From sequence record MN850590.1: a stretch of 64,000 nt of DNA. One strand, given 5' to 3'. Below, in pieces: positions 821 through 55,968 of this stretch; the stretch's first letter is position 1, and every line of letters begins with the position of its first letter. The translations under genes and the position numbers were made by a program. Source of the DNA: Escherichia phage moha. The notes below the pieces were generated by a model. It was given only the letters and a program-made list of their open reading frames with translations. It was not told where the DNA came from and did no database searches.

Positions 821-1555
821 ATGGAGCTAATCTTTTTAAGTGGCATCAAACGTAGTGGCAAAGATACTACTGCTGATTACATCAATTCAAACTTTAAATC
901 TGTAAAATATCAATTAGCATATCCGATTAAAGACGCTCTAGCAATAGCCTGGGGGCGTAAACATGCTGAAAATCCTGATGTATTCACAGAGTTGAAATAC
1001 GAATACTTTGAAGGCATTGGATACGACCGTGAAACACCATTAAATCTCAATAAGTTGGATGTTATTGAATTATTGGAAGAAGCGCTAATTTATTTGCAAA
1101 GTCAATATTTACCGATTAATAATGTTAAAGTATTATCATCGTTAGAAGGTGGATATTCGTATCTAGATATTAAACCATATGAAGCCCTGCGTGAAGCTAT
1201 AAATAATATCAACGACACATGGTCAATCCGCCGTCTTATGCAAGCCCTCGGTACGGATGTTGTCGTTAATTTATTTGACCGTATGTATTGGGTTAAACTT
1301 TTTGCATTAAACTATATGGATTATATTGGAAGTGATTTCGATTACTATGTTGTAACCGATACACGCCAAGTCCATGAAATGGAAACCGCTAGAGCGATGG
1401 GTGCTACAGTTATTCATGTGGTTCGCTCTGGTACGGAATCCACCGATAAACATATTACAGAAGCTGGGTTGCCTATTGAAGAAGGCGATTTAGTTATTAC
1501 AAACGACGGCTCTTTAGAAGAGCTTTATTCTAAAATTGAAACAATCTTAAGGTAA
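821..1555 (+). CDS. 1: deoxynucleoside monophosphate kinase gp1
   Basis: 244 aa; N-terminus MELIFLSGIKRSGKDTTADY matches T4 gp1 P-loop region. Confidence 0.95.
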   Translation: MELIFLSGIKRSGKDTTADYINSNFKSVKYQLAYPIKDALAIAWGRKHAENPDVFTELKYEYFEGIGYDRETPLNLNKLDVIELLEEALIYLQSQYLPINNVKVLSSLEGGYSYLDIKPYEALREAINNINDTWSIRRLMQALGTDVVVNLFDRMYWVKLFALNYMDYIGSDFDYYVVTDTRQVHEMETARAMGATVIHVVRSGTESTDKHITEAGLPIEEGDLVITNDGSLEELYSKIETILR

Positions 1556-49418: not shown

Positions 49419-50054
49419 ATGAAAACTACTCCTATTACTATCGCTATTGACGCAATCGTAAAACAAGCTTCTTCTTTGGCTACTATGGCCAAAGTAATTA
49501 GTCAAAACCCTGCTCGTTATAATGCTATTCTAGAAACTCTTCGACGCCCAGGACTTAGCAATTATGAAAGCCGAGTAATTATTACAGGTGTTGGTAAGAA
49601 TGCTAATATTGCAACTAAAGCTTCTGAGACATTTGCTTCACTCGGTATCCCAAGTATGTACTTGAACACCGGGCATTATTCTCACGGTGATGCAGGATTC
49701 ATTGCGCCTAATGATGTGTTGATTCATATTAGTCGTTCTGGTAAGACCGAAGAAATGATAGGTGTTGCTAAACATCTTCGTATGATTCGTCCGAACGTCA
49801 AACAGATTCTGTTGCATTGTAACCCAGACATTCCACAAGAAAATGAAGCCCTTTTTGATTACTCTTTCTGTACAGGCATCGCAGTAGAGGTTGACGAGAA
49901 CTCTTTAGCTCCGACTATGTCTACTACATTGTTGTTAGCGCTTATCGATACGTTTGCTATCAACCTTTCGTCTGAGCGTGGATTTACCTCTAATGACTTC
50001 CTTAAGTTCCACCCTGGTGGTGCACTAGGTGCCATGTTACGAGGCGAACAATGA
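49419..50054 (+). CDS. SIS-domain sugar-phosphate isomerase (KdsD/GutQ arabinose-5-phosphate isomerase-like)
   Basis: 211 aa; GVGKNANIATK...HGDAGF...ISRSGKTEE aligns with KdsD SIS core GMGKSGHIG..HGDLGM..ISNSGES. Confidence 0.8.
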   Translation: MKTTPITIAIDAIVKQASSLATMAKVISQNPARYNAILETLRRPGLSNYESRVIITGVGKNANIATKASETFASLGIPSMYLNTGHYSHGDAGFIAPNDVLIHISRSGKTEEMIGVAKHLRMIRPNVKQILLHCNPDIPQENEALFDYSFCTGIAVEVDENSLAPTMSTTLLLALIDTFAINLSSERGFTSNDFLKFHPGGALGAMLRGEQ

Positions 50055-50194
50055 AAGCAATAACAATAGGACTTTTACTATTGATGCTTGTCATGACTAT
50101 CTACTGGAGCTTAACAGCTCCAGTAATGATTCCAACACTTGTAATTGGATGGATTATGATTGGACTACAAGCAAAGTATGAATGCTTTAACTAG
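50051..50194 (+). CDS. possible 47-aa membrane peptide (not in ORF track)
   Basis: ATGA overlap with SIS gene stop; hydrophobic with IGWIMIG; sits where T4 imm lies. Confidence 0.4.
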   Translation: MKAITIGLLLLMLVMTIYWSLTAPVMIPTLVIGWIMIGLQAKYECFN

Positions 50195-50235: not shown

Positions 50236-51921
50236 ATGAAAAAAGCTGTTATTCTTGGTGCTGGATTGGCAACTCGTTTATATCCAATAACGCATCATAT
50301 TCCTAAGGTGCTTGTTAACTATAAACAAGACACTATTCTGAGCAATTTGTATACAATTTATTCTGACCTTGGCGCAGATGAAATTATTGTAGTAGTTCAT
50401 TCAAAATTTGCTGAAACTGTTCGAGCTTATTGTGAGCAAGAAGGGTTCAATGTGACTATTCGTACAGTTGATGAAGCGTATGGATCTGCTTATGCTCTTG
50501 CTAAATTACACAAAGATTTAGACGGCCATAATGTAATTGTTAACTGGTGTGATATTATTCCTGATTTTGGTTCATGGTCTTGGAATGTTAACGCAATCTA
50601 TGTTAAAGGTGACGAATGTCGATATAATTTCGACGGTGAAAATATCACTAACGTAGGTTCAACAGGTGGTAATGTTGTAGGAATTTATCAGTTCAAAGAC
50701 TGGGAATTCTATATGGGTTCTACTGATGAAGAAATTCATGAATACTGCAAAGGACGTGATTTCGTAGAATTCCTTTACGCCAGCGCATTCAATAAATCAG
50801 AGCTTATGAATCTAATTGATTTAGGTGATATGCCTAAACTTGAAAAGGCTCATGAAGTTCGTGAACTTAATCGTAGTTTTAATGCAGTTGAAATTGGTGA
50901 AGAAACTGTAACTAAATTCGCATTGACCGAACAGGGTCGAGCTCTTCAGAAAGATGAGATTTCATGGTATCTTAAAGTGAAATCGGATTCAGTTCCTCAG
51001 TTAGTTTCTGTTAATGAAAATAACTTTGAAATGGAACGCATTAAAGGTAAGCCGGCATTTGAATATATTAAATCCAAATCAAGTCTTGCTCGTCCACAAA
51101 TTGTTGATGCAATTTTAGATGCACTGAAATTCAGCACAGACACTTATTTTGTAAGTCCTGAAACTGTTCGTCGTGATTTCACTAAAGAATTCTATACGAA
51201 AGTTATTGATCGTTGTGAAAGCATTCAACCATTGATTGATTCATTTGGTAAAATCACGCATGTGAACTACACTAAGATTGGACGTCTGAAGCCAATGCTG
51301 AAACAAGCTTTAGAACACCTTATTCGTTATCATAACCGTTCTCAGGGGCAGTACTCTGTTATTCACGGTGACCCGAACTTCAGTAATACTATGATTACTG
51401 ATAACGGCGAAGTCAAGTTTATCGACCCTCGTGGATATTTTGGCGAAACCAAGATTTACGGGCCAAAATTGTATGATGAAGCTAAAGTGCTTTATGCTGT
51501 TTCAGGTTATGATGAATTCAATGCTAATCCGACCTGGGGACAGTTTACTATTGATGAAACAACTTGTAATGTGACTATTAACATCAATCCATTAGTTTAC
51601 AAATATGGAAAGATGAGTTCGTTTAACGAGTATCATCATTTGGCAGTGGCAATTATCTGGATTGCATTAGGTGGTTATTTCAAGAATAATCCACTTAAAG
51701 CGGTAGCCGCATATTATAAAGGTATGGAACTTCTGACTAAGCAATTACGTAACATGGGCCGTGTACTTCAGGACGGCTCTATTAGTTATGACGTAGCAGA
51801 ACCTGTAACGGCTACTCTGATTACAAAAAATCCTGGTAAATGGGTACTAACTGATAAAGAAACTGGTGTTTCCTATCGTCCAATCGGTGGCGATATCACT
51901 CATCAATGGGAACGAATCTAA
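50236..51921 (+). CDS. bifunctional sugar-1-phosphate nucleotidyltransferase / APH-choline-kinase-like sugar kinase
   Basis: 561 aa; N-terminal ILGAGLATRL nucleotidyltransferase loop; C-terminal HGDPNFSN...FIDPRGYFG kinase catalytic/Mg motifs. Confidence 0.85.
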   Translation: MKKAVILGAGLATRLYPITHHIPKVLVNYKQDTILSNLYTIYSDLGADEIIVVVHSKFAETVRAYCEQEGFNVTIRTVDEAYGSAYALAKLHKDLDGHNVIVNWCDIIPDFGSWSWNVNAIYVKGDECRYNFDGENITNVGSTGGNVVGIYQFKDWEFYMGSTDEEIHEYCKGRDFVEFLYASAFNKSELMNLIDLGDMPKLEKAHEVRELNRSFNAVEIGEETVTKFALTEQGRALQKDEISWYLKVKSDSVPQLVSVNENNFEMERIKGKPAFEYIKSKSSLARPQIVDAILDALKFSTDTYFVSPETVRRDFTKEFYTKVIDRCESIQPLIDSFGKITHVNYTKIGRLKPMLKQALEHLIRYHNRSQGQYSVIHGDPNFSNTMITDNGEVKFIDPRGYFGETKIYGPKLYDEAKVLYAVSGYDEFNANPTWGQFTIDETTCNVTININPLVYKYGKMSSFNEYHHLAVAIIWIALGGYFKNNPLKAVAAYYKGMELLTKQLRNMGRVLQDGSISYDVAEPVTATLITKNPGKWVLTDKETGVSYRPIGGDITHQWERI

Positions 51922-52307
51922 TGCCCCGTGTAGAAAACATGCTTAATCTTTGTTTTGATGTCGATGATTGCATCACGGAATGGAATAACAATCGTGATTA
52001 CGTGAACTTCAAACCAGACGTCGAAATGGTGTCTGCCATTAATGCCCTGTATGATGCAGGGCATACCATAACGCTTTACACTGCTCGTGGTATGAAGTCA
52101 GTAGGTCCTGGTCGTATAGCAATTGACATTCTCCCAAGTCTGATTCAGAACTTGGAAAACATTGGTTTGAAGTACCATAATTTGCTAACACATAAACCAG
52201 TATATGATTGGATTATCGACGACAAAGCTATGCGTCCTGATGAATTCAAAGCTCTTATGAATAAAGGCGAATTCGAAACATTTAAATCATATAAACCAAA
52301 TCTATAA
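51921..52307 (+). CDS. HAD-superfamily phosphatase
   Basis: 128 aa from ATG 51921 (TAATG overlap); motif I FDVDDCIT, later TARG and IIDDK. Confidence 0.75.
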   Translation: MPRVENMLNLCFDVDDCITEWNNNRDYVNFKPDVEMVSAINALYDAGHTITLYTARGMKSVGPGRIAIDILPSLIQNLENIGLKYHNLLTHKPVYDWIIDDKAMRPDEFKALMNKGEFETFKSYKPNL

Positions 52308-52364: not shown

Positions 52365-53525
52365 ATGAATACTTTTAAAATCGGAACGAATTTTGATTTA
52401 GCTCTTCTTGATAAAATCGTAGAGCTCAATAAAACCTATCCTAATAGCTTGATAAACGAAGTATATGGCTCTACAAGAGAAATGGCTTTTGTAGCAGCCA
52501 GACCTGATTTTAGGCTTCCTGACGTTGACAAAAAGATGTTAGAAGACTACGTTAAACGTTGTAACGAATTAGGTATTTGCTTTAACTATACACTCAACAC
52601 GATAAATCCTGGTTCAAAAAGAGAACTAGTTGAGTGGAAGAAGAAAGCTATTCAGGATTATGTTCAGTATCTTTGGTCAATAGGCGTATGGCGTATTACT
52701 ATCGCTAACCCTGTTGTTATGGAAATTGTTCGTGAAGTCAATAAAGATATTGAGATTGAAGTTTCAACAATTCTACATGTCGATGCTGTAACTCAAATAA
52801 AATACTTGCATGACCAATATAACATCAAAAAGGTCTGTTGCGGAATTCATAAGAACCGTTCAGTTTCTTTCCTGAAGCGTGCAGCAGAGTTTTGCAATAA
52901 GAACAATATAATATTTGAAGTTCTTGTAAATGAGTTCTGTTCTAATGCTGGTAAAGGGTATACAACACATTGTAGCTATCGTGACTCTTGCTATATTTTC
53001 CATAGTACTGATGTTACCGCTGATGATGCTAAATCCTTAAATGGATATCCAATGCAACACTGCATTAAAGCTCGTGATACAGACCCATTTAACTGGCTGA
53101 GAACTCGTTTTGTTCGTCCTCAAGATTTGAAACTTTATAATGATATTGGTATCACTCAATTCAAAGTTTCAGGACGTACAGGTAGCACAGACTACATTTT
53201 GAAAGTTCTTGAAGCATACGCTTCTGAAAAGTTTGAAGGTAATTTGTTAGAACTGTGGAAGCCTTTAGAGACTATTTTCACTCTTGAAAACGAAACTGAG
53301 TTTTCACATACAGTAAATATTGAAACCTCTTTGTTAGATGGCTTTTTAGAAAAAAGGTGGTTCAGACATCCAGATTTCGATTGTGCTAATGAAATCTGCG
53401 GGACGACGTGTACATATTGTGAAAGATATTATAAACGTCAATTATCTAAAAACGGGTTAGCAGAAAACTCTATATCTATTATTGATATAACTAACTCTGA
53501 TGACGCTTTGAGGTACCCGGAATGA
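52365..53525 (+). CDS. hypothetical protein with C-terminal Cys cluster
   Basis: 386 aa; CANEICGTTCTYC (C-x3-C-x3-C-x2-C) near C-terminus; no confident fold. Confidence 0.85.
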   Translation: MNTFKIGTNFDLALLDKIVELNKTYPNSLINEVYGSTREMAFVAARPDFRLPDVDKKMLEDYVKRCNELGICFNYTLNTINPGSKRELVEWKKKAIQDYVQYLWSIGVWRITIANPVVMEIVREVNKDIEIEVSTILHVDAVTQIKYLHDQYNIKKVCCGIHKNRSVSFLKRAAEFCNKNNIIFEVLVNEFCSNAGKGYTTHCSYRDSCYIFHSTDVTADDAKSLNGYPMQHCIKARDTDPFNWLRTRFVRPQDLKLYNDIGITQFKVSGRTGSTDYILKVLEAYASEKFEGNLLELWKPLETIFTLENETEFSHTVNIETSLLDGFLEKRWFRHPDFDCANEICGTTCTYCERYYKRQLSKNGLAENSISIIDITNSDDALRYPE

Positions 53526-53761
53526 TTTCTAGAAAAACTTTTAACCACCAACTTAATGAAGAGATTTTGACTATGAAACTGAACACTAATGAACAAATTC
53601 TTAAAAAGGCCCTGATGGGCCTTTTTGAAACTAAAGCGGCTAAAGTGATTAAAGAACCTGTTCAATTAGAATACTACGCTGATGCATTTCTTCATAGTGT
53701 TCTTGGAAGTATCGATGCCGAAGCTTTACGTTATATCAATATTGCCAAGAAATTCAAATAA
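53522..53761 (+). CDS. hypothetical small protein (doubtful)
   Basis: 79 aa; contains terminator-like hairpin GGCCC-tgat-GGGCC TTTTT at 53606-53624. Confidence 0.45.
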   Translation: MISRKTFNHQLNEEILTMKLNTNEQILKKALMGLFETKAAKVIKEPVQLEYYADAFLHSVLGSIDAEALRYINIAKKFK

Positions 53762-53784
53762 GCTTTACGAATTGAGTATATAAT
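53762..53784 (+). promoter_or_regulatory. possible middle promoter
   Basis: GCTTTA box, 11 bp, TATAAT; the box motif is duplicated 40 bp upstream. Confidence 0.4.
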
Positions 53785-53802: not shown

Positions 53803-54519
53803 ATGGGAAAACATAACACAATGAAATATATCAAAGCCGCAGATTTTCAAACCGCATTTAAAGCAGTCAATCGTGAAATTTTAGAAAACCCGGAATTCGT
53901 AACTGATTCTCGTATTGGACGTTGTAATGAAATTGGGTCTATGACAGTAGTTGTTGACACTCCATCATCATTCAAAATGACCGACCCACGTATTAACCGC
54001 ATCTCTTATGAATATGCCGAAGACTTCTGGAAGTTTATGATTTCTGGTGGTACCAACGCAGAAGAAGCGTTTAAGGCATATCCTAATGTCGCTAAATTTA
54101 TTTCTAAACCAAAATCAGATGTTTTGCCGGCGAACTTCAACACTTTCTATGGTCCTCGCATTGCGGCTCAATTACCAGCTCTTCTAAAAGAACTTAAAGA
54201 GAAGCCTAACTCTCGAAGAGTTGTGTTCCAAATTCTAGAAAGTTCTGATCAGGCTTTGCTTGATTCGGACGAAACGCTTGAATATCCATGTACTGACTCA
54301 GTGACTTATTATATTCGTGATGGTAAGCTTTATACCCACTGTCATATGCGTTCTCAGAACTGTGCTGTTGTTATGCAGTTGGATTTTTATCTCCAAGGAA
54401 AATTACTTCATTATATCGCTAACGAATGTGGTGTAGAAGTTGGTGATTATACTCATACCATGGTAAGTGCCCATGTGTTTGAACGTGATTTTGATTATGT
54501 TAAAGGATTCCTTGACTAA
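53803..54519 (+). CDS. 42: thymidylate-synthase-fold pyrimidine hydroxymethylase (gp42-like dCMP hydroxymethylase, divergent)
   Basis: 238 aa; NSRR...YPCTDSVTYYIRD...MRSQN pattern parallels T4 gp42 DSRR...MCTNTVQYLIRD...MRSND. Confidence 0.7.
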   Translation: MGKHNTMKYIKAADFQTAFKAVNREILENPEFVTDSRIGRCNEIGSMTVVVDTPSSFKMTDPRINRISYEYAEDFWKFMISGGTNAEEAFKAYPNVAKFISKPKSDVLPANFNTFYGPRIAAQLPALLKELKEKPNSRRVVFQILESSDQALLDSDETLEYPCTDSVTYYIRDGKLYTHCHMRSQNCAVVMQLDFYLQGKLLHYIANECGVEVGDYTHTMVSAHVFERDFDYVKGFLD

Positions 54520-55418
54520 TGGCTATTTTCCGCGTACCTATCTTGAGTATGCGGTCTTATGAAACTGGACAGTATGCTATCCTTAAGGATGGCAACTTCC
54601 AACTTCATTTGCACCGTGCTAATCCAGGTGATGTGATTACATATCCACGTAATGCATCTGATATTAAAGAATGTGAACGTCTTTTCCCAGAATTTAAGTT
54701 TGTTCCATTATGGTATAAAGATAACGCGTATAACACTCGTAAATATTTCTGGTCTGAAAATGAATTTGTGGTTGATTCATTAATTGCTTATTATGATTGT
54801 GATTTTCTAATCACAGATATCACTGGATATGATGGTGCTTTTGATGTAGAATTCAATTTCAATATCACTGCAGACCCTAATAAACCACGTTTTTATATTG
54901 ACGAATTCTTAAAAACTGATATGTTGTCGGTTAATCGTTCACTTCAAACTACTGTGTTGAATGAACGTCAAAAAGAAGTGCTGGTTAACGCAGGTGCAAA
55001 TGGTAATAAGATTATCGTAACGCAGAAAGTTATACGTCCTTCCATCATGCAGCGTCTTGTAGGTGATTTGGCTCCTATTCATCTAGATGGTATTTTTCAT
55101 CCATTTCGAATTAGTGACCCATGCTATCGTTTTGAACAAGTGGTTGAATGTGCAATTCAATTAGGTCAACCGCTTTATATAACCGATCCAAATAATAGCT
55201 TCGACAGAAATAAGTATCCTGAAGAAGCGTTGATTCGAATTTTTAAACCAACTAAAACTGAGTACTATCAAATTCTTAAAGGACGTCCGAAGATTCAATA
55301 TTTCGAAAATCCTGAAGAAGTATTCCATCCAGGTCTTGGTGAGTTCATCTACTTTAATGCTTTAATTTCTTCGCCGTATAATATACCTAAATACGAAGAT
55401 GTCGTAATCGAGGAATAA
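54519..55418 (+). CDS. hypothetical protein at beta-glucosyltransferase position (candidate transferase)
   Basis: 299 aa; TAATG overlap with upstream gene; no motif recognised. Confidence 0.8.
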   Translation: MAIFRVPILSMRSYETGQYAILKDGNFQLHLHRANPGDVITYPRNASDIKECERLFPEFKFVPLWYKDNAYNTRKYFWSENEFVVDSLIAYYDCDFLITDITGYDGAFDVEFNFNITADPNKPRFYIDEFLKTDMLSVNRSLQTTVLNERQKEVLVNAGANGNKIIVTQKVIRPSIMQRLVGDLAPIHLDGIFHPFRISDPCYRFEQVVECAIQLGQPLYITDPNNSFDRNKYPEEALIRIFKPTKTEYYQILKGRPKIQYFENPEEVFHPGLGEFIYFNALISSPYNIPKYEDVVIEE

Positions 55419-55419
55419 A

Positions 55420-55968
55420 ATGGCTAAAATTATTTTAGTAGACGGCCCAGATAATGCTGGTAAAACAACTTTCATTAATGACATAATGGAAATTAGTGAA
55501 AGATATGTAAAGATTGATTTCCCTAAACGAACAGTTGATGGACGTTTCGATGTTAAGTCTCGAAATGAAGTTGGCTGTTTCGAAACGATGTTGAATTATT
55601 TAGACCCTACTAAGATTTATCTGTTAGACCGTGGATATATTAGTAACTGGGTTTATGGACGTATTCGACAAGATGCGGACTCGGTTCTTGATGTTTATGA
55701 ACAGGATTATGTTCGTCTTTGCCAAAACCATGATGTGTTCACAATTATTTTAACACGTAACGAAATGACTGAAAGTTTTGAAGACGACCTTATTACTTTG
55801 TCTTCATTCGGTTTTAATACAGTCATTTCACATTTTGAAGAGTTTGCAATTCATAACAAAATCCAAACGTATCAATTACTTAATCATGATGGTGCTAACA
55901 AAGTTATAGGATTTAATGCAAGCGAACGTAATGATTTGATTACAGAAATCATCAAATGGGCTCGTTAA
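55420..55968 (+). CDS. P-loop kinase (nucleoside/nucleotide kinase-like)
   Basis: 182 aa; Walker A VDGPDNAGKTT; LLDRGY motif. Confidence 0.8.
   Translation: MAKIILVDGPDNAGKTTFINDIMEISERYVKIDFPKRTVDGRFDVKSRNEVGCFETMLNYLDPTKIYLLDRGYISNWVYGRIRQDADSVLDVYEQDYVRLCQNHDVFTIILTRNEMTESFEDDLITLSSFGFNTVISHFEEFAIHNKIQTYQLLNHDGANKVIGFNASERNDLITEIIKWAR

Follow-up and report, generated by a model that had tools for sequence, protein, structure and literature searches.

The genes analyzed here lie in a 64,000-nt stretch of Escherichia phage moha (sequence record MN850590.1; this whole stretch is hereafter the window, and all coordinates are window positions), which by its sequence is an RB69-like Mosigvirus. 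Two adjacent open reading frames (ORFs), encoding a 299-aa protein (GT1) and a 182-aa P-loop kinase, follow the gene of a thymidylate synthase (ThyA) homologue. The robust part of the analysis is that GT1 is the base-proximal glycosyltransferase (GT) of a 5-hydroxycytosine (5hoC) pathway and that the kinase is a nucleotide kinase dedicated to the same pathway. The functional assignment of both genes is already known, having been published in 2025-2026 on near-identical phages. RB69 gp46:47 and DLP3 gp79 are named 'arabinosyltransferase 1' and RB69 gp45 and DLP3 gp78 'nucleotide kinase', in all cases as predicted functions (Lee et al., Nucleic Acids Res 2026, PMC13326640). The window proteins show no material difference from RB69 gp46:47 and gp45, except that a known sequencing frameshift splits GT1 into two tblastn pieces in the RB69 reference record while it is a single ORF here. 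New in the present analysis are the tight packing of the genes, their co-retention across genomes and contigs, and the occurrence of GT1::kinase fusion proteins.

Both ORFs are real genes and not chance ORFs, because tblastn over 50,697 phage genomes yielded 348 records encoding GT1 and 343 encoding the kinase, and because the AlphaFold models of both proteins are confident. The 2.2-kb stretch that contains them shows 99% identity to many RB69-like coliphages. The hydroxylase, GT1 and kinase genes form a tightly packed three-gene core. The GT1 start codon and the stop codon of the synthase gene have one base in common (TAATG, a one-base overlap), and one base lies between the GT1 stop and the kinase ATG (TAAaATG). 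Downstream of the kinase, uvsX at 56067 is followed by gene 40 and gene 41; in T4, the order in the same slot is 42 - b-gt - segA - uvsX. An earlier sequence-only reading of this DNA had described two ORFs of 299 and 182 aa within 54519-55968, and it had put the first in the beta-gt position and called the second an extra kinase. All of this was confirmed, as T4 b-gt fills the same slot between gene 42 and uvsX and the canonical gp1 deoxynucleoside monophosphate (dNMP) kinase is encoded separately in the window.

The same reading had found no GT signature in the 299-aa ORF, and at the sequence level none was detected: searches with GT1 returned no Pfam family (E<=0.1), no NCBIfam family and no PDB chain (phmmer, E<=10). 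GT1 is 99.0% identical over residues 1-299 to RB69 ORF046c plus ORF047c (tblastn) and belongs to phrog_3891 (function unknown; E 3.5e-156). The family is small, with only 228 relatives recovered when 1.84 billion representative proteins were searched exhaustively with a profile; it has no solved structure. For GT1, fold comparison alone was informative. The AlphaFold model, built on an alignment of 51 homologues, has a predicted local distance difference test score (pLDDT) of 95.3 and a predicted template modelling score (pTM) of 0.90. It consists of two Rossmann-like domains with an interdomain cleft, which is the GT-B fold, and its best structural neighbours are sucrose-phosphate synthase and BshA. 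The choice between GT-A, GT-B and a novel fold, proposed earlier as a check, thus came out in favour of GT-B: GT1 confidently folds, in the model, as a minimal compact GT-B protein and is predicted to be a GT4-like glycosyltransferase. Its C-terminal half contains invariant R197, K246 and H270-P271-G272 and a conserved E275, which are candidates for the acidic EX7E-type donor-binding motif and the basic diphosphate ligands.

BLASTP of GT1 against T4 alpha-GT, T4 beta-GT and the second Mosigvirus GT revealed no similarity. T4 beta-GT resembles GT1 in its genomic slot (from the ThyA-homologue gene to uvsX), in GT-B architecture and in placing a sugar on a C5-oxygenated cytosine, but has no detectable sequence homology to it. 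The second Mosigvirus arabinosyltransferase (RB69 gp3 / HY126 GT, PDB 9iqz/9ir0) has 366 aa and 11% identity to GT1. It is encoded beside the topoisomerase gene, outside the window, and adds the second sugar, and its DLP3 homologues gp76 and gp77 act on DNA.

A different activity has been claimed for a closer relative, Thanatos TH1_063, which is 47.5% identical to GT1. In vitro, the purified protein made UDP-xylose when given UTP and xylose-1-phosphate, and it gave no transfer to unmodified C acceptors. On this precedent GT1 would be a UDP-pentose pyrophosphorylase and not a transferase to cytosine. This is very improbable, as the fold is GT-B and not a nucleotidyltransferase fold, and the same cluster encodes an AfhE-type nucleotidyltransferase-kinase published to make UDP-arabinose. 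The negative transfer result from Thanatos is uninformative because the acceptors carried unmodified C, and contaminating host GalU-type activity is not known to have been excluded for the TH1_063 preparation.

The kinase carries the motifs GPDNAGKTT (residues 9-17) and LLDRGY (residues 68-73), as had been read from the sequence earlier. Its confident AlphaFold model has the nucleoside monophosphate kinase (thymidylate-kinase) fold with a P-loop and a DR(Y/H/F) motif, and its family profile matches vaccinia thymidylate kinase (E 0.004), aligned over the P-loop and the FPxR motif. With the thymidylate kinases of vaccinia (A48R, 2v54) and S. tokodaii (2plr) it shares the fold, the acidic third P-loop residue, FPxR and DR(Y). 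Unlike these enzymes, it is always linked to the 5hoC hydroxylase and GT1 and is sometimes fused to GT1. It scored 16.6 bits against TIGR00041, where the cut-off is 83.25, and PF02223, for which it is far below the curated cut-off, was not reported in the Pfam scan. Because these scores are far below the curated cut-offs, the kinase should not, judged by its profile matches, be named a deoxythymidine monophosphate (dTMP) kinase. In hhalign, the P-loop alone aligned between the kinase family and E. coli Tmk, and with an alignment so limited the prediction of base specificity from thymine-contacting residues was dropped. No sequence or structure similarity was found to T4 gp1 (1DEK), which is likewise a phage kinase feeding a modified deoxycytidine monophosphate (dCMP) into DNA synthesis. 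Genomic context argues that the substrate is presumably a modified dCMP rather than dTMP.

Two other roles can be envisaged for the kinase. It might serve the donor side instead of acting on a cytosine nucleotide: by re-phosphorylating UDP or UMP left over from the GT1 reaction, it would relieve product inhibition and regenerate UTP for the UDP-arabinose pyrophosphorylase. This is unlikely: its best matches are dTMP kinases, and the acidic P-loop residue, FPxR and DRx are typical of thymidylate kinases that bind dNMPs. Moreover, host Ndk and PyrH already do that job, and the kinase accompanies GT1 and the hydroxylase in contigs with no sugar-nucleotide genes detected nearby. Alternatively, it might phosphorylate 5hoC in the polymer, in the manner of the 5-hydroxymethyluracil DNA kinases (5-HMUDK) of thymidine-hypermodifying phages, given that it is a small P-loop kinase encoded within a base-hypermodification cluster. 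Such a role is hardly credible, since the 5-oxygen is kept as the glycosidic bridge, so that a phosphate leaving group would serve no purpose, since fold and motifs point to a mononucleotide kinase, and since the protein is acidic (isoelectric point, pI, 4.9).

The identity of the modified base follows from the gene upstream of GT1. Its product matches PDB 9iqc/9ir2 (E 7.9e-161, 5 mismatches in 238 residues), presumably the HY126 enzyme for which the 2026 paper refers to a crystal structure. In E. coli ThyA numbering it has N169, D177 and E143, while T4 gp42 has D169, and N169 is present in 49 of the 50 GT1-linked ThyA homologues. This residue is diagnostic of 5-hydroxy-dCMP (5hodCMP) synthases, and RB69 gp48, the homologue for which this signature is published, synthesizes 5-hydroxy-dCMP with the help of flavin and O2 (PMC13326640). 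RB69 DNA contains mono- and di-arabinosylated 5-hydroxycytosine and not arabinosyl-5-hydroxymethylcytosine (arabinosyl-hmC), and the 5-oxygen, derived from O2, stays as the glycosidic bridge in the final product (PMC13326640). In the same study RB69 gp159, the gp1 orthologue, phosphorylates 5hodCMP, and gp48 and gp159 alone drive bare 5hodC into DNA (PMC13326640). The acceptor is 5-hydroxycytosine and not hmC, because the upstream gene encodes a 5-hydroxy-dCMP synthase. The interpretation of the sequence-only reading is hence partly supported. Its 'gp42-like' neighbour is a ThyA-superfamily homologue, but one that makes 5-hydroxy-dCMP and is ~98% identical to PDB 9iqc. Its candidates for glycosyl transfer and for handling a modified nucleotide were right in kind and are already in the literature, whereas its proposed acceptor, hmC-DNA, was the wrong base.

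The three-gene core is predicted to be part of a pathway replacing every cytosine by 5-O-arabinosyl-5-hydroxycytosine. The products of the SIS, nucleotidyltransferase-kinase and HAD genes that immediately precede this core would supply uridine diphosphate (UDP)-arabinofuranose (UDP-Araf), the synthesis of which has been shown in near-identical phages (HY126 AfhE, RB69 gp52:53). GT1 would most likely put the first, base-proximal arabinose from UDP-arabinofuranose on the 5-hydroxyl of 5hoC, and the second GT of RB69 gp3 / PDB 9iqz type, outside the window, would add the next sugar. The 182-aa kinase would be dedicated to modified deoxycytidylate. In the favoured order of steps, 5hodCMP would be phosphorylated by the 182-aa kinase and/or gp1, nucleoside diphosphate (NDP) kinase would yield 5hodCTP, and after polymerization GT1 would act on 5hoC-DNA. 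Taken as a whole, this T4-like route, with an RB69-type GT1 acting on 5hoC in DNA and a modified-dCMP kinase, is given an even chance of being correct.

The distribution of the genes revealed a strong tendency to stay together. By host genus, GT1 and the kinase were found in equal numbers of records in Escherichia (176/176), Acinetobacter (57/57) and Shigella (15/15) phages and in 26 and 25 records in Klebsiella phages; the kinase is kept in essentially every GT1-bearing genome. Synteny was analyzed in 51 IMG/VR loci with up to 10 kb on each side, and almost all of them had the ThyA homologue, GT1 and the kinase together as a triad. In the non-T4-like contigs carrying the triad (L030-L043), arabinose-pathway genes were not detected within the available sequence (<=10 kb on either flank). 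The kinase gene of some genera is relocated between the HAD and the U32/ThyA genes, still within the cluster. A flavodoxin-like / NADPH-FMN-reductase gene adjoins an N169-type ThyA homologue in three annotated loci (L030 8216-8743; L035 8715-9290; L052 8232-8702, minus strand), in two of which, L030 and L035, no T4-type marker genes were seen. This placement is consistent with reduced flavin being supplied to the hydroxylase; within the window, the Mosigvirus cluster has no such gene.

GT1 and kinase are also found as single polypeptides. At least 8 representative clusters (50% identity) of 519-599 aa have this GT1::kinase organization (P0247, P0254, P0256, P0260, P0268, P0280, P0285 and P0286), with a C-terminal domain of ~190 aa. 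This domain contains a thymidylate-kinase P-loop (LEGFDRIGKD / VEGFDRAGKSS) and a TRLFxSDxVYG motif which corresponds to DRGYISNWVYG of the window kinase. Its best PDB match is thymidylate kinase 9wd2 (E 0.024), and it matches Pfam Thymidylate_kin with E 1.2e-4. Profile-profile comparison was needed because a narrow kinase hidden Markov model built from close relatives missed the domain; hhalign against the window kinase family gave a probability of 84.5% (E 7e-6, 134 columns). For one fusion, the gene was verified in its contig, where SIS, nucleotidyltransferase-kinase, HAD-like and U32 genes follow.

Another group of proteins joins GT1 to a HAD domain. These HAD::GT1 fusions are ~536-553 aa long (L052 9452-11107; P0166, P0175, P0181, P0197, P0201 and P0265), and their N-terminal domain is a KdsC-like HAD phosphatase with DxDG...GDD motifs, which connects GT1 with the sugar-nucleotide branch. 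In L049 (3615-6201), a distant relative of GT1 (26% identity) lies between a ThyA homologue with S169, not N169, and a UDP-galactopyranose mutase, and the kinase was not detected in this 10.5-kb locus. It may represent a galactofuranose variant like Rhizobium phage RL38J1.

Whether GT1 receives its acceptor as DNA or as a nucleotide is where the readings part. To our knowledge, every characterised phage DNA glycosylation so far is post-replicative, which favours the DNA-level route. The placing of 5hodC in DNA by gp48 and gp159 alone and the addition of the later sugars on DNA favour it too. Several points weigh against it. The extra kinase looks redundant under this route, as the gp1 orthologue already phosphorylates 5hodCMP, and GT1::kinase fusion proteins exist. 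The GT1 family has a median pI of 5.2 and DLP3 gp79 one of 4.7, whereas the DLP3 GTs that act on DNA range over 5.7-7.2 and T4 beta-GT reaches 9.05. Net charge is weak evidence only as a discriminator of DNA-acting GTs, because T4 alpha-GT and DLP3 gp77 are also acidic, though GT1 is the most acidic. The publications consulted report no activity for GT1 or for this kinase, and a transposon-mutagenesis preprint contains no essentiality data on the two genes. When the DLP3 GTs were tested singly, including the GT1 orthologue gp79, no arabinosylation of 5hoC-DNA was obtained with UDP-Araf or UDP-arabinopyranose (UDP-Arap), while gp76 and gp77 worked on DNA in the same study and added a third arabinose to RB69 DNA (PMC13326640). 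According to its authors, their data do not distinguish between a mononucleotide and DNA as the acceptor (PMC13326640).

These same points give room to a pre-replicative order of events, a possible but less probable reading. Here GT1 would make Ara-5hodCMP, the dedicated kinase would convert it to Ara-5hodCDP, host NDP kinase would form the triphosphate and the polymerase would incorporate it; only the second and third sugars would be added on DNA. 5-Hydroxycytosine in DNA is mutagenic and is a substrate of host repair glycosylases, which counts for this order. The GT1::kinase fusion clusters, the retention of the kinase although gp1 handles 5hodCMP, and the inactivity of singly tested gp79 on 5hoC-DNA are all in line with it. 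So is the gene order hydroxylase-GT-kinase, which matches the reaction order with stop and start codons overlapping or abutting. GT1 is acidic and its structural neighbours use small anionic acceptors, and the publications consulted report solely arabinosylated forms in virion DNA, without mention of unglycosylated 5hoC. None of these points is decisive. The post-replicative character of all characterised phage DNA glycosylation argues the other way; the HAD::GT1 proteins show that pathway fusions also join non-consecutive steps, and the kinase gene lies apart from GT1 in some genera. Besides, gp1 would compete for 5hodCMP, since gp48 and gp159 bring bare 5hodC into DNA. Glycosylation of 5hoC in DNA by GT1 is retained as the preferred reading.

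The Peptidase-U32-family protein of the cluster may be an O2-independent C5 hydroxylase backing up the O2-dependent ThyA-like synthase. The U32 members RlhA, TrhP and UbiU/V are prephenate-linked O2-independent hydroxylases, and the window protein shows a weak match to UbiU. It occurs at >=82% identity in the phage records counted in Table 1 and in none of the 57 Acinetobacter phages bearing GT1 and the kinase; Acinetobacter is a strict aerobe. In loci L050, L051 and L061 the kinase, GT1 and U32 genes are present and a ThyA homologue was not detectable. Klebsiella phage KLB31 and Erwinia phage Virsaitis27 each have, between U32 and ThyA homologue, a gene for a CM_2 chorismate mutase (L059 4655-4894; L060 4658-5002), the enzyme that makes prephenate. 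In the published work the U32 protein is labelled 'sugar or heterocycle reductase', with no mention of U32 or RlhA (PMC13326640).

The remaining features of the locus are collected in Table 1. The 79-aa ORF between the U32 and ThyA-homologue genes was considered as a chorismate mutase and this was ruled out, as no resemblance was found between it and the CM_2 proteins occupying that slot in other genera. The candidate middle promoter lies directly after the stop codon of this ORF and 19 nt ahead of the ATG of the ThyA homologue; its GCTTTA element resembles what we take to be the MotA-box consensus of T4 MotA-dependent middle promoters. A generic sigma-70 promoter scan and a terminator scan showed no enrichment over shuffled sequence. 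In the slot of the 47-aa ORF, an annotated 144-nt gene is found in Bas46, NRG-P0074, KLB31 (there annotated transmembrane) and Virsaitis27, the match being one of slot only. In NRG-P0074 a homing-endonuclease gene (L001 4403-5164) is inserted between the nucleotidyltransferase-kinase and HAD genes, and Virsaitis27 has a Seg-like homing-endonuclease gene; the window has none at that insertion site. The 561-aa nucleotidyltransferase-kinase enzyme is mis-annotated as 'dCMP deaminase' in the NRG-P0074 record.

Table 1. Coordinates, strand and assignment of the features of the modification locus and of related genes in the window.
Feature	Position	Strand	Assignment and evidence
T4 gp1-type canonical dNMP kinase	821..1555	+	E 5.8e-92 to PDB 1DEK
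SIS-domain arabinose-5-phosphate isomerase	49419..50054	+	Donor-sugar pathway; Pfam SIS, phrog_5670; role published for RB69 gp55
47-aa hydrophobic ORF	50051-50194		Between SIS and nucleotidyltransferase genes
Bifunctional nucleotidyltransferase + sugar kinase (AfhE-like)	50236..51921	+	Makes UDP-arabinofuranose; Pfam NTP_transferase and weak kinase-family matches; published for HY126 AfhE, RB69 gp52:53
HAD-type phosphatase (AfhF-like)	51906..52307	+	phrog_1238; role published
Peptidase-U32-family protein	52365..53525	+	Pfam Peptidase_U32 E 7.3e-11; 221 phage records
79-aa ORF	53522-53761		phrog_8601; overlaps U32 stop codon; conserved in several genera
Candidate T4-type middle promoter	53762..53784	+	Low confidence; GCTTTA, 11 nt, TATAAT, read from sequence
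ThyA-superfamily 5-hydroxy-dCMP synthase ('gp42-like')	53803..54519	+	Pfam Thymidylat_synt E 2.3e-15; makes the hydroxyl that gets glycosylated
GT1, 299 aa, ATG start	54519..55418	+	Compact GT-B (GT4-like) glycosyltransferase; predicted base-proximal arabinosyltransferase; orthologue of RB69 gp46:47 / DLP3 gp79 / Thanatos TH1_063
182-aa P-loop NMP kinase, ATG start	55420..55968	+	Thymidylate-kinase fold; RB69 gp45 orthologue; substrate only predicted

Phages of this kind are common among coliphages and are used in research on phage therapy and defence systems. DNA with arabinosyl-5-hydroxycytosine resists type II restriction enzymes in vitro, and resistance to type I CRISPR-Cas and the glycosylase Brig1 is cited in the literature. 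Among the steps of the pathway, only the installation of the base-proximal sugar still awaits reconstitution. Whether the acceptor is DNA or a nucleotide decides how the modification can be engineered or stripped, and whether enzymatic routes to glycosylated deoxynucleoside triphosphates (dNTPs) exist. The GT1::kinase fusions sharpen a testable hypothesis on what GT1 glycosylates and what the kinase phosphorylates. If the pre-replicative order were true, no earlier example of a DNA precursor glycosylated before replication would precede it, and the hydroxylase-GT-kinase triad would be a portable 'glyco-dNTP' module in several virus lineages.

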